From the NCBI RefSeq assembly GCF_021246445.1, contig NZ_JAJQXW010000001.1:1630168-1694167 (forward strand): a DNA stretch of 64,000 nt. Reading direction: 5' to 3'. Shown one piece after another: positions 7,699-55,002 of the stretch; position 1 is the first letter of the stretch, and every line of letters starts with the position of its first letter. The notes below the pieces were generated by a model. It was not told the DNA's origin and ran no database searches. It saw only the letters and a program-made list of their open reading frames with translations. The DNA comes from Rhabdothermincola salaria. GTDB taxonomy: Bacteria > Actinomycetota > Acidimicrobiia > Acidimicrobiales > Acidimicrobilacustridaceae. Made by a program: the position numbers and the translations under genes.

Positions 7699-8853
7699 TC
7701 AGCCGGTGAAGCGGGGCGTGACCGCCACCGGGTTGGCGGCCGTGCCGCCGGCACCACCCGAACCGCCGGTGCCGCCGGCGCCGCCGGTGCCGCCGGTGGT
7801 GGTCGGCGTGGCCGAGCCCGAGGGGGTGACCTCGTTGGAGAGGACCGAAGGGGCCGAGACGCCGCCGTCACTGATGGCATTGACCACGAAGGCGTAGGTC
7901 GTGCCGTTGGTGAGGCCGGTGACCACGCAGCTGGTGGCGGGGGCGATGGTGGTGCAGCCGGCACCACCGGGTTCGGCGGTGGCCTCGTAGGAGGTGGCGC
8001 CGGGCACGGCGTCCCAGCTCACGGTGGCCTGTCCGTCGCCGGCCACGGCGGTGACTCCCGTGGGGGCGGTCGGCGGCAGGACCTCTTCCTCGAGCTCCTC
8101 GGGGGTGAGGGCGGTGCCGGACCAGATGCGCAGGTCGTACACCTTGCCCGAGGGGGTGGCTTCCTCGTCGACCACGTTGTCGTCGAAGAAGAAGCCGAGG
8201 AGCGTGCCTCCCTTGCCGTTGCCCATGGCCAGGGACTCACCGGTGGGGTCGTTGGTGGTGAACACCTGGGTGAGGTTCCCGTCGCCGCCCACGGCGTAGA
8301 CGGTGAAGGTGCCGCTCACCCCACCGGTGCTCTGGCGCACGGCCACCAGGTCGAGCACGGTGTTCGCCGGGTAGGCCGACGGGCTGGTCTCGGAGAAGGG
8401 GTAGAACTCGAGGAAGCCGTCGTAGAAGTAGAAGCCGTTGTCCGACGTCTGGTTCTCGTAGTCGATGATCTTGCGGTAGCTGCTGACCTGGGAGAACGAG
8501 AACTTGAGGGCGAGCGTGTACGTGTCGCCGATCGGCGCGCTGGTGTTGACGCGGAACCCTCCGCCGTTGAGCCCGCTGGAGGTCCACTCCCAGAAGCCGC
8601 CGTTGCCGTCGGAGCCGAACCCGCTGGAGGTGTTGCACGGGTTGTCCGGGCACGCGGGGACGGGTTTGAGCGTGCTGCCGCCGGCCTGGTCGGTGACGGT
8701 GCCGTCGAAGGTGTAGTGCACCGTGGGCGCCGGAGCGGCCGCCGAGGCGGGCCGGGCCACCAACCAGGTGGACATCACGAGAGCGACGGCGACCAGCACC
8801 GCCATCAGGGTGCGCGGTCGGGCGATCACGGCCAAGGGCGAGGGGGCACTCAT
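7699..8853 (-). CDS. Secreted protein: LamG/concanavalin-like domain, fibronectin type III domain, Gly/Thr linker, PRFTG tail
   Basis: Signal peptide ending PASA; YTFDG...DLRIWSGTALT; Fn3 motif PTAPTGVTAVAGDGQATVSW...GLTNGTTYAFVV. Start placed after a TAAGCT -10. Confidence 0.8.
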   Translation of the reverse strand: MSAPSPLAVIARPRTLMAVLVAVALVMSTWLVARPASAAAPAPTVHYTFDGTVTDQAGGSTLKPVPACPDNPCNTSSGFGSDGNGGFWEWTSSGLNGGGFRVNTSAPIGDTYTLALKFSFSQVSSYRKIIDYENQTSDNGFYFYDGFLEFYPFSETSPSAYPANTVLDLVAVRQSTGGVSGTFTVYAVGGDGNLTQVFTTNDPTGESLAMGNGKGGTLLGFFFDDNVVDEEATPSGKVYDLRIWSGTALTPEELEEEVLPPTAPTGVTAVAGDGQATVSWDAVPGATSYEATAEPGGAGCTTIAPATSCVVTGLTNGTTYAFVVNAISDGGVSAPSVLSNEVTPSGSATPTTTGGTGGAGGTGGSGGAGGTAANPVAVTPRFTG

Positions 8854-8943
8854 GGCCGGGAAGCTTAGGCGCGTCACCGTGGCGCTGGGCCCGGATGGTG
8901 CTCGGGGCCGGGCCGCGGCCCCGGTCGACCGCGGGCGGACCGC

Positions 8944-9789
8944 TCACCTGTCCGGCAGGTCGCCCTCGAGGAGGGGGACGGTGCCGGTGGCGGGATCGAA
9001 GTAGCGCAGCCAGGTGACGAGCCCCGGTGGGTCGGTGAAGTCGCGGGGATGGTGGCCGGGGAAGCTGGCCACCACGAGGTTGGGGACGGTGACGAAGCCG
9101 ATGCTCACCGCCCAGGGCACGAGGCGCAGCCAGGGCAACGGCGACCAGCGCCACCGCGATCCCCAGAGCTGGGCGAGGACGGCCAGCACGGTGAACCAGG
9201 CCAGCAGCGACAGCGTGGTGAACGCCGCCAGGGCGTAGCGCAGGCGGGACCCGTCGACGGCCTCGTACACGTCGTGGGCCACGCTCTTGTGCTCCACCTC
9301 CTCGGCCAGGTGCCAGCGGAACAGCGCGGCTGTCGACGGCTCCACCCCGTCGAAGAGCACGCGGTCGTGGCGGTCGGCCCACCGGGCGATGCTGAAGGCG
9401 ATCGTCTCCGACGCGGCGGCGAAGGCCAGGCTGAAGCGGGTGCTGCGGGTGCGGTCGAGCCATCCGTAGGACCGCCTCGCCCACCCCTCGACGCGCACGA
9501 GGCCCGGCCGATCGACGGTGAGGCGGTCGTTGAAGCGGCGGTGCTCGCCGTGGTGGCGCGCCTCCTGGGCGCAGAAGGCCACCGCCGTGGACCGCAGCGG
9601 CTCGTCGAGGTCGTGCGCCACCCCCCGGACCGCCCGCACGAAGTACGGCTCGGCGTAGGGCATGAGCAACGAGACGGCGTTGACGGCGAAGGCCAGCTCC
9701 GGGCGTCGGGCGTTCCATGCCGGGTCGACCTCGTCGCCGTGGGCGAGGCGCACCCGTCGCTCGGTCAGCCCACCCGTCGAGGTCACCAC
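8944..9789 (-). CDS. Predicted metal-dependent hydrolase (ferritin-like diiron family)
   Basis: NAVSLLMPYAEPYF, QEARHHGEH, WHLAEEVEHKSVAHDVY; start approximate. Confidence 0.8.
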   Translation of the reverse strand: MVTSTGGLTERRVRLAHGDEVDPAWNARRPELAFAVNAVSLLMPYAEPYFVRAVRGVAHDLDEPLRSTAVAFCAQEARHHGEHRRFNDRLTVDRPGLVRVEGWARRSYGWLDRTRSTRFSLAFAAASETIAFSIARWADRHDRVLFDGVEPSTAALFRWHLAEEVEHKSVAHDVYEAVDGSRLRYALAAFTTLSLLAWFTVLAVLAQLWGSRWRWSPLPWLRLVPWAVSIGFVTVPNLVVASFPGHHPRDFTDPPGLVTWLRYFDPATGTVPLLEGDLPDR

Positions 9790-10007
9790 CCCATGCTCGC
9801 ACCCCCGGACGGACGGGCCCCCATCCCCCGGGACGCGAGGAGGGCCGGCCCCCAGCAGGGCCGACCCTCGACATGAGGCATCACGTGTCACTGCTCCCGC
9901 ACCGCCGTCACGCGGGAGCACGTGAGCCCCGGGCACGATCGCAGTCAGGTGGCGGGTCGGGAGCGCCAGCGACCCCGCCACACGCGGCGCTCCGCGCCGC
10001 CAGGGAC

Positions 10008-11117
<1,110 letters not shown>

Positions 11118-11651
11118 TTAGGACGCGTCGGCGACGGCGGAAAGCTCCGGGGATCGCCGCTCGATGCGGGGCAGGGCCACCCGGCCGGTGCGCTGGAGCG
11201 CGACCACGCCGTAGTTGGCGATGAGCTCGGCGAAGTCGTCGAGCTTCTGGGGGTGGCCCTCGAGCACCAGGGTGATCTCGTCGAAGCCGACCCCGACGAC
11301 GCGACCCTCGAACACGCCGATGAGCTCGATGACCTGGCCGCGCGTCTCAGGCGGTGCCTCCACGGTGACCAGCAGCAGCTCGCGCTCCACGGCGTCGCCG
11401 GGAGCCAGCTCGTCGATCTGGACCACGTTCACCAGCTTGTCGAGCTGCTTGACGATCTGCTCGAGGGGTGCCTTCTCGACGTCGACCACCGCGGTGATGC
11501 GGCTGAAGCGCTCGTCGTCGGTGGGGGCCACGGCGAGGGAGTGGATGTTGTAGCCCCGGCGGGCGAAGAGGCTCGACACGCGGGCGAGCACGCCCGGCTT
11601 GTCCTCGACGAGAACCGAGAGGATGTGCTGGCGACGGGTGGACGTGGGCAT
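11118..11651 (-). CDS. ilvN: Acetolactate synthase small subunit
   Basis: ACT domain LSVLVEDKPGVLARVSSLFARRGYNI; lies between ilvB and ilvC. Confidence 0.97.
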   Translation of the reverse strand: MPTSTRRQHILSVLVEDKPGVLARVSSLFARRGYNIHSLAVAPTDDERFSRITAVVDVEKAPLEQIVKQLDKLVNVVQIDELAPGDAVERELLLVTVEAPPETRGQVIELIGVFEGRVVGVGFDEITLVLEGHPQKLDDFAELIANYGVVALQRTGRVALPRIERRSPELSAVADAS

Positions 11652-13378
11652 CAGGACTCCCCTGGGCCGATGACGATCTCGGAGTTGGTCCTGCCGGAGG
11701 GGACCATCGGGAAGACCTTCTCCCGGGCGTCGGTGCGGAAGTCGATGACGACCGGCCGGTCATCGATGCTGTTGGCCTTCTCGATGGCGGGCAGCACCTC
11801 CTCGGGTGACTCGACCCGCATGCCCACGCACCCCATGGCCTCGGCCCACATCTTGTAGTCGGGCAGGTCGGGCGAGAGGTACACCTCGCTGTAGCGCTCC
11901 TCGTAGAACATCTCCTGCCACTGGCGCACCATGCCGAGGTAGGCGTTGTTCAAGATGGCGATCTTCACCGGGATGCGCTCGGCCGCCGCAGTGACCAGCT
12001 CCTGGGCGGTCATCTGGAAGCAGCCGTCGCCGTCGACGGCCCACACCATCTTGTCGGGGCGGCCGACCTTGGCCCCGATGGCCGCAGGCACGGCGAAGCC
12101 CATGGTGCCCAGCCCCCCGGAGTTCACCCAGGTGTAGGGGTGGTTGAACTTCCAGTACTGCGAGGTCCACATCTGGTGCTGGCCCACCCCGGAAGCGACG
12201 ATGGTGTCGTCGGGGGTGTTGTCGCGCAGCTGCTCGAGGACGTACTGGGGCTTCAACAGCTCACCGGGCTCGGACTGCTCGTAGCTGATGGGGTGCTTCT
12301 CCTGCCAGCCGCTCACCGTGGAGCGCCACTCGGAGCGGTCCGGTTGGTTCCCGGGGGCGCCGAGCTCCTTCAACGCCACGATGAGCTCCTCGATGACGAG
12401 GCGGGCGTCGCCGGTGATGGCCACGTCGGGCCGGCGGACCTTGCCCAGCTCGGCGGGATCGATGTCGACGTGGATGATCTTGGCGTCGGGGGCGAACCCG
12501 TCGAGCTTGCCGGTGACCCGGTCGTCGAAGCGCGAGCCGAGGGCGATGAGCAGGTCCGACTCCTGCATGGCGGTGACCGCCGTGTAGTTGCCGTGCATGC
12601 CCGGCATGCCCAGGCACAACGGGTGATCGTCGGGGATGGCGCCGCGGGCCATGAGGGTGGTGACGACCGGGAGGTCGAGCAGCTCGGCCAGGGCGGTGAG
12701 CGCCTCGGCGCCCCGCGCCTTGAGGATGCCGCCACCGGCGTAGATGACCGGGCGCCGGGCGGTGCCGATGAGCTCGGCGGCAGCCCTCACCAGGTCCGGA
12801 TCACCCTCCATGCGGGGGTTGTAGCCGGGCATGTCGACGGTCTCGGGCCAGTACCAGTCGAGCGCGGAGGCCGGGTTGGTGGGGTCGACGATGTCCTTGG
12901 GGATGTCGACCAGCACCGGCCCGGGGCGCCCGGTGGTGGCGATGTGGAAGGCCTCCCGGATGGCCCGGGGGATGTCCTCGGCCCGGGTGACCAGCTCGTT
13001 GTGCTTGGTCACCGACCGGGTGATGCCGACGGTGTCGACCTCCTGGAAGGCGTCGGTGCCGATGGCCTTGGACGCGACCTGGCCGGTGATCACCACGAGC
13101 GGCACCGAGTCCATGTAGGCGTCGGCCAGCGGGGTGACGATGTTGGTGGCCGCCGGCCCGGAGGTCACCATGGCCACGCCGGGGCGGCCGGTGACGTGGG
13201 CGTACCCCTCGGCCATGTGGCCGGCGCCCTGCTCGTGGCGCACCAGGATGTGGCGGATCGGCGAGTCGATGATGGGGTCGTACACCGGCAGGATGGCGCC
13301 GCCGGGCAGGCCGAAGATGACGTCGACCCCCTCCAGCTCGAGAGATTTGATGAGGGCGGAACCGCCGTTGGTCTTCAT
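11651..13378 (-). CDS. ilvB: Acetolactate synthase large subunit
   Basis: FGLPGGAIL, RHEQGAGH, GDGCFQMT...NN ThDP motif, GMVRQWQ. Confidence 0.98.
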   Translation of the reverse strand: MKTNGGSALIKSLELEGVDVIFGLPGGAILPVYDPIIDSPIRHILVRHEQGAGHMAEGYAHVTGRPGVAMVTSGPAATNIVTPLADAYMDSVPLVVITGQVASKAIGTDAFQEVDTVGITRSVTKHNELVTRAEDIPRAIREAFHIATTGRPGPVLVDIPKDIVDPTNPASALDWYWPETVDMPGYNPRMEGDPDLVRAAAELIGTARRPVIYAGGGILKARGAEALTALAELLDLPVVTTLMARGAIPDDHPLCLGMPGMHGNYTAVTAMQESDLLIALGSRFDDRVTGKLDGFAPDAKIIHVDIDPAELGKVRRPDVAITGDARLVIEELIVALKELGAPGNQPDRSEWRSTVSGWQEKHPISYEQSEPGELLKPQYVLEQLRDNTPDDTIVASGVGQHQMWTSQYWKFNHPYTWVNSGGLGTMGFAVPAAIGAKVGRPDKMVWAVDGDGCFQMTAQELVTAAAERIPVKIAILNNAYLGMVRQWQEMFYEERYSEVYLSPDLPDYKMWAEAMGCVGMRVESPEEVLPAIEKANSIDDRPVVIDFRTDAREKVFPMVPSGRTNSEIVIGPGES

Positions 13379-13455
13379 GGTGTGGTCCTCGGTGCGGGGC
13401 GTGGTGGCGTGGGGAGGTGGGGCTGGACGGTCGGGGAGGCGGCCGCTCGGCGGCG

Positions 13456-13490
13456 AAAACGCAACCGACCTCCCGCAAGTGGGAGGTCGG
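13456..13490 (-). terminator. Attenuator terminator of the ilvBNC leader
   Basis: Minus strand CCGACCTCCC-ACTTGC-GGGAGGTCGG followed by TTGCGTTTT. Confidence 0.85.
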
Positions 13491-13523
13491 GGACGCGCAC
13501 GCGGCGAGAGAGGCCGGCGTGCG

Positions 13524-13571
13524 CTAGCGGAGTACTACGAGCGAGATGACGATGATGTCCGCGGGGCTCAT
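13524..13571 (-). CDS. ilvL: ilv operon leader peptide MSPADIIVISLVVLR
   Basis: 15-aa ORF with 8 Ile/Leu/Val among its last 10 codons, including rare GTA GTA; directly upstream of the terminator and ilvB. Confidence 0.85.
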   Translation of the reverse strand: MSPADIIVISLVVLR

Positions 13572-13643
13572 AGGCCGACCAGTGTGCCAGGCCCGCTGCG
13601 CCGGCGGCAACTCGGGCCGACAGCGAGGCCCAGCCGAACGCGA

Positions 13644-13671
13644 CGGTGGCGGGCCCGAGGGCCCGCCACCG
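13644..13671 (-). terminator. Perfect hairpin after the Gly-rich protein gene
   Basis: CGGTGGCGGGCC-CGAG-GGCCCGCCACCG. Confidence 0.6.
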
Positions 13672-13701
13672 AGGACGACGCTTGGCTGGTGCGACGAGCG
13701 A

Positions 13702-14697
13702 TCAGCCGGTGAAGCGGGGGGTGACCACGGCCGGCCGAGCGGCCGTAGTGGTGCTCGGCGTGGGGGTGGACGTGGTGGTGGTGGTGGGAGCCACACCGCA
13801 GTCCGCGGGCTGGTCGGCCGGGTCGTAGCTGATGACCAGGGCACCATCGCCCTCGTTGAACCCGGTCTCGAACACTGCGCCGGCCGGGCCGTAGCTGGAG
13901 CCGCCACCGCCGCCTGCGGCGGCACCACCCCCGCTCACCACGGCGCCGCCGCCGCCGCCACCGAAGTAGCCGCCGCCGCCGCCACCGCCGCCGCCGTTGT
14001 AGAGGTCGGGGGTGTTGTCGACCGTGCCGTCGCCACCGTCGCCGCCGTCGAACGTGACACCCGCGCCGGCGGTGACGCTGCCGCTGTAGTCGACGCCCGC
14101 CGCGCCCCCGGCCGCTTGGGTGCCGCCGCCACCGCCGGTGGTGGCGGCCTCGCTGCCGTCGGCACCGGCCACCCCGACCTCGCCCCCGTCGCCACCGTCG
14201 CCTTCACCCACGCCGGCGAAACCCCCGACACCGCCCCCGCCGCCGGCCACGACGAGGGGTTCGGGTCCGTCGGGGATCAGCCCGGAGAGACCGCCACCGC
14301 CGCCACCGCCCGAGGTGACCTCCTGCGCGGTGCCACCGTCGCCGCCGCCACCGACACCGCCAGCGCCGCCGATGCCCTCCACGGCGTCTTGCCCCTGGCC
14401 GCCGACGACCACCACGAGCTCGTCGCCCGGCGTCACGGTGACCGTCGCCAGCACCCGCGCACCGAGACCGGCCGCGAGGCCGCCTTCGGGGCCCCCCTCG
14501 TCGTAGCCGCCCGAGGCACCCCAGGCCTCGACATCGATCTCGCAGATCCCGGTCGGGACGATCCAGTCGAGCACGCCCGGCACCTCGAAGCCCTCCACCA
14601 CCGGCTCCAAGGACTGGCCGCCAGCGGTGGCCGGCAGCACCAGCACCGAGGCCACGGCCACGGCCGCTGCGGTCACACCACGTCGAGTCCGTCGCAT
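13702..14697 (-). CDS. Secreted glycine-rich domain protein (ALK/LTK GRD-like) with Thr-rich linker and PRFTG tail
   Basis: Signal peptide MRRTRRGVTAAAVAV...; WIVPTG...EAWGASGG, VTPGDELVVVVGGQG, LVVAGGGGG; GGAGG RBS. Confidence 0.8.
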   Translation of the reverse strand: MRRTRRGVTAAAVAVASVLVLPATAGGQSLEPVVEGFEVPGVLDWIVPTGICEIDVEAWGASGGYDEGGPEGGLAAGLGARVLATVTVTPGDELVVVVGGQGQDAVEGIGGAGGVGGGGDGGTAQEVTSGGGGGGGLSGLIPDGPEPLVVAGGGGGVGGFAGVGEGDGGDGGEVGVAGADGSEAATTGGGGGTQAAGGAAGVDYSGSVTAGAGVTFDGGDGGDGTVDNTPDLYNGGGGGGGGGYFGGGGGGAVVSGGGAAAGGGGGSSYGPAGAVFETGFNEGDGALVISYDPADQPADCGVAPTTTTTSTPTPSTTTAARPAVVTPRFTG

Positions 14698-14976
14698 CAC
14701 GGTTCCTCCATCGAGTTCGAGTCGGACGAACAGTAGTGGGCCGGGCAACTGCCGCGCCGGGATCCCGCCAGTGCCCAGCAGGTGACCGACCCGACACCCG
14801 ATCGGGATCGTCTCGAAGCACGGCGGGCGCCGGCGCGAAGGCCGGCGTCGCCGCGACGCTGACCCCCACCAGCGCCCGTGCTTCCGCCGACCCCGAGACG
14901 CGCAGTGCCGTGAGCCCGGACGGGCGTCGTCGATGGTGACGCCGGCAGCCGGACCCGCCGTCGCTCGTTCGCCGAG

Positions 14977-49659: not shown

Positions 49660-50670
49660 CTACAGCTCGGCGAGGAGGCGGTCGGCTGCCGACCACGGGT
49701 CGAGCCGGCGGGCCACCACCTCGTCGCGGAGGCCGTCGAAGAACGCCCCCGAACCGAGTGCGGCGGCTTCCTCCATGAGGCGGGCCACCACGATGCGGTG
49801 CAGCTCGGCCCCCGACCGCCGAGCCCGACGCCGCTCGACCTCCCCGCTCGCCTGCCCCCACTCGCGGTGGCGGGCCAGCGTGCCCCAGAGCTCAGCGACC
49901 CCCTGGCCGGTGGTGGCCACCGTCTCCACGATCGGGGGCACCCACGGCCCCGGACCGCTGGCAGAGCCCGACGAGCCAGCAGGACCCCGACCGCCATCCG
50001 AGCCACCCCGATCAGCCAGCGCCAGCATCGACTCCAGGTCCCGACGGGTGTCGGCGGCCCCCGGCCGGTCGGCCTTGTTGATCACGAACACGTCGGCGAT
50101 CTCCATGAGACCCGCCTTGTTGGCCTGGACGGCGTCGCCCCACCCCGGGTTCACCACCACCACGGTGGTGTCGGCCTCGCCGGCCACCTCCACCTCGACC
50201 TGGCCGACGCCCACGGTCTCGAGCACCACCCAGGGCCAGCCCGCCGCATCGAGGACCCGCACCGCGGCCGGGGCAGTCAGCGACAGCCCGCCCAGATGGC
50301 CACGGGTGGCCATGGACCGGATGAACACCCCGTCGTCGAGGGCATGTTCGCCCATGCGCACGCGATCGCCCAGGATGGCGCCGCCCGTGAACGGCGACGA
50401 GGGATCGATGGCCAACACCGCCATGCGCTCGCCCGCCCGGCGCGCCTCGCCCACCAGGGCCGACACCAGCGTCGACTTGCCGGCCCCCGGCGAACCGGTG
50501 ATGCCCACGGTCGTGGCTGCCCCTCCCACGGGGTGCACCGCCCGGCTCACCTCCCGGGCACCGTCGCCGCCGCGCTCGACCGTCGACAGCAAGCGGGCCA
50601 GGGCACCGCGATCGCCGCCACGGGCCGCGTCGAGCAACTCGGCCGGGGATCGGGACGGGGGGCGGGCCAC
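49660..50670 (-). CDS. meaB: Methylmalonyl-CoA mutase-associated GTPase
   Basis: GITGSPGAGKST, DPSSPFTGGAILGDRVRM, ETVGVGQ, NKAD. Confidence 0.93.
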   Translation of the reverse strand: MARPPSRSPAELLDAARGGDRGALARLLSTVERGGDGAREVSRAVHPVGGAATTVGITGSPGAGKSTLVSALVGEARRAGERMAVLAIDPSSPFTGGAILGDRVRMGEHALDDGVFIRSMATRGHLGGLSLTAPAAVRVLDAAGWPWVVLETVGVGQVEVEVAGEADTTVVVVNPGWGDAVQANKAGLMEIADVFVINKADRPGAADTRRDLESMLALADRGGSDGGRGPAGSSGSASGPGPWVPPIVETVATTGQGVAELWGTLARHREWGQASGEVERRRARRSGAELHRIVVARLMEEAAALGSGAFFDGLRDEVVARRLDPWSAADRLLAEL

Positions 50671-54195: not shown

Positions 54196-55002
54196 ATGCG
54201 CACCCGCCTCGCGGCGGTGGTGGCCACTCTCGGTCTGATCCTCGCCGCCTGCGGCGGATCGAGCTCGGAGACCACCGCCGACACCGTCCCCGTCGTCACC
54301 GTCCCCACCACCGAGGCGACGACGACCACCGCGTCGCTGCCGTTCGGCTGCGGCGCCGTCGCCGACCGCACCATCAGCTACAACGCCGCCGCCGTGAACC
54401 AGGGCGACCTGGCCGTGTACGACGCGCCCGGCGCAGCCGAACCGGTGAGCTCCATGGAGAACCCACGGCTCATCAACGGCGACCCCAACGCCGCCGTCCC
54501 GCTGGTGATGCTGGTCAAGGACGCCCCCGTCACCGACGACTGCCAGTGGGTCGAGGTCTTCCTCCCCGTGCGCCCCAACGGGTCGAGCGGTTGGGTGAAG
54601 CGCAGCGACGTGGAGATCAGCGCCAACCCCTTCCGCATCGAGACCGACCTCGGCGACTTCACCCTCACCGTGCTCCAGGACGGCGAGCCCATCAAGGAGA
54701 TCGACATCGCCGTCGCCTCCGACAACACGCCGACCCCGGGCGGGCTGTACTACATCACCGAGCTGGTGCAGACCCCCGACCCCGGCGGAGCCTACGGGCC
54801 GTTCGCCTACGGTCTGTCGGGGTTCTCCGACGTGCTCACCTCGTTCAACGGCGGGCCGGGCCAGCTCGGGATCCACGGCACCAACCGTCCCGAGCTCATC
54901 GGCTCCAAGGTCAGCAACGGCTGCATCCGCATGCACAACGACGACATCGTCGCCCTGTCCGAGATCCTTCCTCTCGGCGTACCCGTCGAGGTGATCGCCT
55001 GA
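54196..55002 (+). CDS. L,D-transpeptidase (YkuD) lipoprotein
   Basis: Lipobox LAAC; RPNGSSGWV, TPTPGG, GIHGTN...SNGCIRM. Confidence 0.93.
   Translation: MRTRLAAVVATLGLILAACGGSSSETTADTVPVVTVPTTEATTTTASLPFGCGAVADRTISYNAAAVNQGDLAVYDAPGAAEPVSSMENPRLINGDPNAAVPLVMLVKDAPVTDDCQWVEVFLPVRPNGSSGWVKRSDVEISANPFRIETDLGDFTLTVLQDGEPIKEIDIAVASDNTPTPGGLYYITELVQTPDPGGAYGPFAYGLSGFSDVLTSFNGGPGQLGIHGTNRPELIGSKVSNGCIRMHNDDIVALSEILPLGVPVEVIA

Follow-up and report, generated by a model that had tools for sequence, protein, structure and literature searches.

A conserved C-terminal end-tag on exported proteins of Acidimicrobiia and Thermoleophilia and its possible link to YkuD-type L,D-transpeptidases

Two open reading frames (ORFs), here called ORF A and ORF B, in a stretch of 64,000 nucleotides (nt) from the genome of Rhabdothermincola salaria (contig NZ_JAJQXW010000001.1; the whole stretch analysed is called the window) code for secreted proteins with unrelated domains and closely similar last residues. 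Among the relatives of both proteins this tail has the consensus [V/A]-x-P-x-[F/Y]-[T/A]-G-COOH. By comparison of sequences it is an undescribed end-tag, widespread on surface proteins of two deep-branching lineages of Actinomycetota, and it probably fixes these proteins to the cell wall. We propose, as a tentative reading that falls a little short of an even chance, that the last five to seven residues form a modular tag on Sec- or Tat-exported proteins of Acidimicrobiia, Thermoleophilia and related uncultured Actinomycetota, which would serve for wall retention and would most likely be read by a YkuD-type L,D-transpeptidase (LDT).

ORF A codes for 392 residues from a GTG start and ends in ...GGTAANPVAVTPRFTG, followed by the stop codon; an alternative ATG at position 8853 is the start used in the initial annotation of the window. 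ORF B codes for 348 residues from a TTG start, with an alternative ATG at 14697, and ends in ...TTTAARPAVVTPRFTG, again followed by the stop codon. The initial annotation had claimed a common C-terminal tail on two unrelated secreted proteins, and this is confirmed: 11 of the last 14 residues are identical, as are 24 of the last 25 nt if the stop codon is counted. The near-identity of the DNA is what a strong codon bias at third positions (GC3) is expected to give for identical residues, and recent exchange of DNA is not thereby indicated. Apart from the last 14 residues the two proteins share only a signal peptide, with a basic and then hydrophobic N-terminus as read from the translations, and a low-complexity spacer ahead of the tail, of the Gly/Thr or the Thr/Pro type. 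In P0002, a close homologue of ORF A, the start falls within the hydrophobic core of the signal peptide.

The domains of the two proteins are unrelated in Pfam. ORF A matches fn3 (PF00041) at residues 271-344, and the Pfam search gave no match for its N-terminal domain of about 210 residues. An alignment of 47 sequences gave an AlphaFold2 (AF2) model of ORF A whose mean predicted local distance difference test score (pLDDT) is 87.0. Two beta domains make up the model, and its last residues, 364-392, are disordered (pLDDT <50). A Foldseek search of the PDB with this model retrieved lectin-like jelly rolls and Fn3 proteins at 8-16% identity, which supports a description as LamG/ConA-like plus Fn3 at the level of the fold only. 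ORF B matches the ALK/LTK glycine-rich family (PF12810) at residues 73-286 with 33.8 bits (cut-off 24.5).

Both frames stop directly after the terminal Gly. No hydrophobic or membrane-helix-like stretch was found in frame past the TGA of ORF A or ORF B, in agreement with the earlier description of the tail as anchorless. Read-through or selenocysteine at these TGA codons was considered and rejected, the coding frame not continuing beyond them. A six-frame reading of the window yields 512 stop-to-stop frames of at least 60 residues, and among them ORF A and ORF B are the only credible ORFs ending in the motif. A loose third match, WPWTG at 50109-50324, was discarded; it lies in a frame of 71 residues that is absent from the ORF lists based on codon-position GC (GC3). 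The case for a tail beyond chance rests on its conservation in relatives and not on the window by itself.

For the ORF A family 146 relatives were scored at E <= 0.001 and for the ORF B family 153; counts are from the 120 listed in each. The C-terminal pattern x[F/Y/H][T/A]G is present in 19 of the 120 relatives of ORF A, in the variants PRFTG, PSFTG, PTFTG, PAFTG, PNFTG, LRFTG, PTYTG, PKHAG and PKFAG. Among the relatives of ORF B the tail is found in 27 of 120 and a helix-type end in 10 of 120. These 46 tail bearers were selected by a regular expression for the last three residues only. At the unselected positions Pro occurs at -5 in 41/46 and V, A, I or L at -7 in 40/46, and an alternating hydrophobic run lies upstream of the Pro. 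Leu at -5 is rare (2/46) and position -4 is variable (R 23, T 11, S 5, K 4, N 2, A 1). No conserved Lys was detected in or near the tail of the 46 proteins. In both families the tail is kept at 45-85% overall identity while the preceding spacer varies freely. A crude signal-peptide test is passed by 39 of the 46, and five more begin inside the hydrophobic core. The NCBI names of the tail bearers are 'hypothetical protein' or 'glycine-rich protein', one of the proteins being from cultured Rhabdothermincola salaria. With the last 40 residues of ORF B as the region of a protein search at E <= 10, 178 candidates were obtained, none of which scored.

Within the ORF A family the tail alternates with complete sorting signals of the Gram-positive type. 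An LPXTG-like motif followed by a hydrophobic helix and a basic tail ends 29 of the 120 listed relatives; the Gram-positive anchor PF00746 was confirmed by Pfam in homologues P0004 and P0011, and P0011 and P0022 are named 'LPXTG-motif cell wall-anchored protein' by one source. On a quick maximum-likelihood tree of 59 family members, in which the tail columns were kept, the two types interleave with five changes per label, and the starred branches force at least 2-3 of them. P0003, which carries the tail, is the sister of P0004 plus P0011, which carry LPXTG. Comparison within this one orthologous family thus shows the tail standing where LPXTG signals stand, as had been suggested. The tree omits P0018, whose C-terminus looks out of frame, and beyond P0055 takes in only P0058, P0059, P0064 and P0065; the listed hits past P0055 left off the tree are mostly Fn3-only matches. 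The tree label 'LPXTG' of P0048 is a false positive of the regular expression, and the 'OmpA-like' labels given by eye to P0032, P0036 and P0044 are unsupported by Pfam and are to be read as 'other'; the interleaving is affected by neither. In some more distant relatives, matched mainly via Fn3, the tail is replaced by a wall-binding domain of the OmpA family, recognized by Pfam in P0106 (36.4 bits, cut-off 27.2) and below threshold in P0059 and P0065.

Species-representative genomes were scanned with CCSCGSTTCACSGGSTGA, that is PRFTG plus TGA in GC-rich codons only. The scan is a sample and not a census; it delivered at least 122 stretches, 80 of them with 2-kb flanks, and the 121 unique loci among those listed (L005 repeats L004) were classed by hand according to ORF length, codon-position GC and family. 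The tail ends a long, coding-looking ORF in 41 loci; 15 loci belong to cytoplasmic orthologue families, one (L053) is ambiguous and 64 hold no credible ORF. The motif is not confined to the two genes of the window. All 41 tail loci belong to the Actinomycetota, taxa being assigned by the name in the sequence record. They account for 21 of 21 loci in Thermoleophilia, 10 of 13 in Acidimicrobiia, 6 of 24 in uncultured bins (metagenome-assembled genomes) labelled 'Actinomycetes', 4 of 6 in unclassified Actinomycetota and 0 of 57 in all other phyla.

The carriers fall into about a dozen Pfam/NCBIfam families, so that the modularity claimed earlier extends to many unrelated exported families. Proteins ending in PRFTG and a stop include Vgb-lyase-type propellers and ice-binding-like, ferritin-like, vWA, beta-helix/PASTA, SpaA/DUF11/DUF7507, Big_3 and pAdhesive proteins. 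'Choice-of-anchor' families are named for their co-occurrence with alternative C-terminal anchors, and three carriers match such NCBIfam models above cut-off: type Q in L042 (100.5 bits) and L049 (43.7 bits), and type A in L059 (63.6 bits). Where the N-terminus of a carrier from the scan is present, it shows a signal peptide or a Tat-like leader. One contig holds three tandem paralogues ending in PRFTG, PRFTG and PRFAG. As judged from these sequences, the tail is a sorting signal in the sense of comparative genomics: within one lineage it forms the extreme C-terminus of many exported proteins that are unrelated to each other, and other anchors can take its place on the same domains. The interpretation as a modular tag is supported as far as sequence reaches.

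In the Solirubrobacterales the tail is usually preceded by a domain of about 90 residues for which there is no Pfam or NCBIfam model. Carriers from the Thermoleophilia (L004 2956-4017, L006 2004-3272, L020 1554-2015, L039 3-2015 and L040 3-884) have in common a C-terminal domain of about 90 residues, again without a Pfam or NCBIfam match, that runs from near G-P-S-G-C-V to near F-x-R-C and leaves only a few residues up to the tail. This domain may be an undescribed immunoglobulin (Ig)-like module with a closing disulfide.

The 15 cytoplasmic proteins ending in PRFTG are enolase (4 loci: L014, L061, L075, L076), RIC/ScdA (3: L041, L073, L118), ABM monooxygenase (5: L013, L029, L051, L102, L119), pyruvate kinase (1), an Hsp20-like protein (1) and one other. 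In the enolase, RIC/ScdA and ABM proteins the pentapeptide is part of a conserved domain and not a tail behind a spacer. Other Actinomycetota are the source of the enolases and ABM proteins, whereas the RIC/ScdA proteins come from Acetobacteraceae and a 'Proteobacteria' bin.

A local hidden Markov model search for YkuD over the six-frame ORFs of all 122 loci listed found Pfam-confirmed YkuD genes only in L006, L020, L021, L028, L036, L039, L066, L069 and L053. In the first eight, all of them from the Thermoleophilia, the LDT gene comes immediately after the tail gene and is read from the same strand. Relative to the stop of the tail gene the LDT starts, taken as the first in-frame candidates, lie at -4, -4, +1, +6, +10, +21 and +43 nt, the start in L036 being not clear. 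The eight regions make up 8 of the 14 flanked Thermoleophilia regions. The carriers upstream belong to five families: ferritin-like (4 loci), ice-binding-like, small membrane plus Ig-like, a protein of 651 residues, and SpaA/DUF7507. An LDT gene is linked to 8 of 25 tail regions and to 1 of 54 other flanked loci, the one being the ambiguous L053 (Fisher p = 3e-4). The linked LDTs consist of a signal peptide, an N-terminal domain of about 110 residues and a canonical catalytic domain, with 32-66% mutual identity; weak, sub-threshold matches of the N-domain to SH3_3 were obtained for three of the five proteins tested (E 0.004-0.03). The N-domain of this LDT subfamily is marked by the pattern W-x-R-V-R-L-P-x-R-P-N-G-x-T-G-W-V. 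No sortase domain was detected in the 72 + 124 flank ORFs of the tail loci.

The loci L028, L036, L066 and L069 share one operon structure, in which two tandem Ferritin_2 genes (PF13668) with Tat-like leaders, the second ending in PRFTG, precede the YkuD LDT. In L053 two tandem YkuD genes (46-963 and 1201-2445, both on the minus strand) lie behind a short Lys/Arg-rich frame of 83 codons that ends in PRFTG; its low GC3 makes it an uncertain candidate for a gene.

The initial annotation had seen no dedicated processing enzyme in the window. This holds for sortases, no sortase domain being found by domain search among the 48 ORFs of the window; for LDTs it needs a qualification, as the window contains a YkuD-type LDT of the same architecture as the tail-linked enzymes of the Thermoleophilia. 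This protein has a signal- or lipoprotein-like N-terminus, an N-domain of about 110 residues and a catalytic domain with the sequence SNGCIRM. It shares 28-36% identity with the tail-linked LDTs, its closest relative in the PDB is YkuD of B. subtilis, and its AF2 model has a mean pLDDT of 68.5. The tail has a concrete candidate enzyme.

A lipoprotein-like ORF (P0241, 54999-55754, plus strand, lipobox LLTAGC) overlaps the end of the YkuD gene of the window and ends in ...PPTSTG. No Pfam family matches this ORF, and its 249 relatives in the representative library vary at the C-terminus. As a third case of the tail it was rejected as a coincidence, an [F/Y/W][T/A]G end occurring in 0 of 150 listed of these 249 relatives.

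Wall retention is the best reading of the tail because the terminal Gly is invariant, Thr or Ala precedes it and the tail exchanges with LPXTG signals; an LDT is suggested as the reader because of the gene linkage. The tail would then do the job that the LPXTG motif, helix and basic tail do in the orthologues, keeping the protein on the wall, and the route to the wall would possibly be an LDT rather than a sortase. The most likely reader would be a YkuD-type LDT with an N-terminal SH3b-like domain. Its catalytic Cys would attack the Thr-Gly bond, the achiral terminal Gly would be the leaving group, like D-Ala4 of the peptidoglycan tetrapeptide, and the Thr carbonyl of the protein would be transferred to an amine of a wall peptide. 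The product would be a Thr-to-wall link of the sortase kind, formed without a membrane-anchored intermediate. According to the parts of the LDT review PMC12729407 used here, LDT donors are tetrapeptides; the bond between the L-centre and the terminal D-Ala is cleaved, D-Ala, which can be exchanged for other amino acids, is released, and the acyl group passes to an amine. The protein is cast as acyl donor and Gly as leaving group because LDTs cut this type of bond and Gly could stand in for D-Ala, being, we infer, the only ribosomal residue able to replace it. That a dedicated family of YkuD LDTs takes its acyl donors from proteins made on the ribosome and ending in -Thr-Gly-COOH, Gly being released and the new C-terminal Thr joined to the wall, is on the unlikely side in our judgement. 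This donor chemistry is speculative, as is the extension of the LDT link to the Acidimicrobiia-like genome of the window itself.

Several points weigh against an LDT-read wall tag. The pentapeptide alone is not diagnostic, since PRFTG is likewise the end of cytoplasmic enolases and of RIC and ABM proteins. The scan is limited to PRFTG plus TGA in GC-rich codons and to the loci listed, and the control loci of the Fisher test are mostly from other phyla, not from within the class. None of the 5 flanked Acidimicrobiia tail loci, and none of the 6 flanked tail loci from elsewhere, has an LDT gene next to it. A single conserved operon accounts for four of the eight linked loci, which leaves about five independent cases. 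The catalytic motif of the LDTs looks ordinary, and the LDT of the window lies 40 kb from the tail genes, adjoining neither. In the LDT-mediated protein attachments described in the parts of PMC12729407 used here the protein is always the acceptor and peptidoglycan the donor. The proposed donor polarity, drawn from gene order in one class only, would be unprecedented and the reverse of these reviewed cases, and is speculative.

Non-covalent docking is unlikely, though of the alternatives it fares best. The beta-strand-like run of Ala and Val residues and the end P-x-F-T-G-COO- would bind uncleaved to a receptor of the wall or surface, such as an SH3b- or PDZ-like pocket or a wall polymer, and the LDT would share the wall biology only or bind by its N-domain. 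The disorder of the tail in the AF2 model is what a docking peptide would show, and the alternating hydrophobic run ahead of the Pro and the weak SH3_3 matches of the LDT N-domain fit in with docking. So does the non-covalent OmpA-type domain at the same place in some distant relatives; known wall modules of this kind (OmpA-like, SH3b, LysM, SLH) are alternative C-terminal modules in relatives of the same proteins. These modules are folded and 50-100 residues long, as opposed to the five to seven conserved, predicted disordered residues of the tail. Against docking, a contact of five to seven residues would be weak for retention, and the translationally coupled transpeptidase would be left unexplained. 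To our knowledge, known carboxylate-binding domains do not prefer an invariant terminal Gly with Thr or Ala before it.

Another process, such as a C-terminal processing or quality-control protease, protection from degradation, or attachment by an LDT with the protein as acceptor via some other amine, is improbable. LDTs are known to attach proteins as acceptors, and basic residues are frequent just upstream of the tail in carriers from the Thermoleophilia. The precedents are the C-terminal Lys of Braun lipoprotein and the beta-barrels of Coxiella and Brucella, in which, according to the parts of PMC12729407 used here, an anchorless terminal tag is read by a YkuD enzyme and linked covalently to the wall, as is proposed for the tail; the YkuD genes directly behind tail genes of the Thermoleophilia add to the likeness. 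In these precedents, which are from diderm Proteobacteria, the protein gives an amine (Lys side chain or N-terminus) and the wall tetrapeptide is the acyl donor, whereas the tail offers a carboxyl end only, so that the protein would have to be the donor. A C-terminal Lys or N-terminal Gly/Ala as amine acceptor is not what the tail presents; it has no conserved Lys in or near it and ends in a carboxylate. An acceptor role does not account for the invariant Gly-COOH, and the replacement of the tail by LPXTG and OmpA modules favours wall retention over turnover.

A minimal sortase signal, in which a sortase would cut between Thr and Gly and link Thr to the wall after loss of helix and basic tail, is also improbable. 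The tail resembles LPXTG signals (PF00746; sortase classes A-F) in closing exported surface proteins at the C-terminus behind a spacer rich in Pro, Thr and Gly, in holding the same position in orthologues, where it substitutes for them, and in ending in Thr-Gly, the scissile pair of sortases; the abstract of one paper gives the cleavage as LPST-G, with the cut before Gly. On the other hand, the protein stops at the Gly, without the hydrophobic helix and charged tail of the tripartite signal. The register differs as well, the Pro lying one position farther from the Gly (-5 and not -4), with Leu at -5 in only the two cases counted above and an aromatic residue at -3 instead of any residue. PF00746 matches neither ORF A nor ORF B, the NCBIfam models likewise giving no match, and the ORFs of the window and of the tail-locus flanks contain no sortase domain, a YkuD gene adjoining the tail gene instead in eight regions of the Thermoleophilia.

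A tail without function, whether similar by chance, produced by the composition of the spacers or carried on a short piece of DNA spread by recombination, is hardly credible: the window holds two copies only and several unrelated cytoplasmic proteins end in PRFTG too, but the tail is conserved in two families with spacers free to vary, always forms exactly the last residues, is confined to exported proteins of particular classes and is linked to one enzyme family.

The reading of the tail as a wall-retention tag can also be set against other lineage-specific C-terminal signals. With PEP-CTERM/exosortase, GlyGly-CTERM/rhombosortase, PGF-CTERM/archaeosortase and MYXO-CTERM/myxosortase it has in common that a short signature recurs within one lineage on many exported proteins of unrelated make-up, several occurrences per genome region, the presence on 'choice-of-anchor' domains and gene linkage to one enzyme family in part of its range. 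It differs in its candidate enzyme, a YkuD transpeptidase, soluble or anchored, and not an intramembrane or membrane-embedded endopeptidase. According to the parts of the preprint 10.1101/2023.06.07.544157 used here, the known sorting signals are all tripartite, with motif, membrane segment and Arg cluster; the tail has no membrane segment and no Arg cluster and is the first of these three parts only. In ORF A, ORF B and 27 further carriers the tail has no match among the models of NCBIfam (June 2026 release) or Pfam, and models of the PEP-CTERM, GlyGly-CTERM and MYXO-CTERM type have no match at the C-terminus of these 2 + 27 proteins; as far as these collections reach, the tail is undescribed, as had been supposed. 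It is likewise not described in the literature covered by full-text searches, which did not include the supplements of 10.1101/2023.06.07.544157.

Should the tail prove to be a wall-sorting tag, proteins would have a third way onto a wall of the Gram-positive type, in addition to sortases and to binding domains that act non-covalently, and this way would operate in two abundant, little-cultured lineages of soil and water with almost unknown surfaces. Their surface proteome could then be read from sequence, thousands of 'hypothetical' proteins being labelled by their last five residues. If the donor chemistry holds too, Thermoleophilia, Acidimicrobiia and related uncultured Actinomycetota would use a sortase-independent covalent surface display that needs no membrane anchor and has a polarity opposite to that of Braun-lipoprotein attachment. 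The tail proteins would be a new class of substrates for L,D-transpeptidases, and a five-residue tag with a one-residue leaving group might provide a ligation handle like the present sortase tags.

The coordinates of the features in the window are summarized in Table 1. The neighbouring genes in the window are housekeeping genes (ilvBNC, ilvD, gatCA, ligA and a PASTA kinase). Consensus scans for terminators and promoters gave nothing adjoining ORF A or ORF B, and the inverted repeat behind ORF B was not called by the terminator scan.

Table 1. Features of the window around the two tail genes and the candidate enzyme
Feature	Positions	Strand	Description and basis
ORF A	7699..8877	-	Signal peptide, ConA/LamG-like jelly roll, Fn3, Gly/Thr spacer and tail; translation, Pfam, AF2
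ORF A signal peptide	8740..8877	-	About residues 1-46, cleavage probably after ASA; read from translation
ORF A low-complexity Gly/Thr spacer	7744..7830	-	Translation; pLDDT <50 for residues 364-392
Tail A TAANPVAVTPRFTG	7702..7743	-	Stop codon (TGA) 7699-7701
ORF B	13702..14748	-	Signal peptide, ALK/LTK-type glycine-rich domain, Thr/Pro spacer and tail; translation, Pfam
ORF B Thr/Pro-rich spacer	13747..13797	-	Read from sequence
Tail B TAARPAVVTPRFTG	13705..13746	-	Stop codon (TGA) 13702-13704
GC-rich perfect inverted repeat	13645..13670	-	11 bp, 3-nt loop, without T tract, 32 nt past the stop of ORF B; read from sequence
YkuD-type LDT	54196..55002	+	Candidate enzyme by homology only; PF03734, 65.3 bits

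Conserved short frames recur among several proteobacterial chance hits of the genome scan. Four of these loci were tested, and two have an Rfam SECIS_3 element about 320 nt away on the opposite strand (L018 1626-1684, minus strand; L030 2335-2393, plus strand), so that the hits probably lie antisense to the region of a conserved selenoprotein gene.

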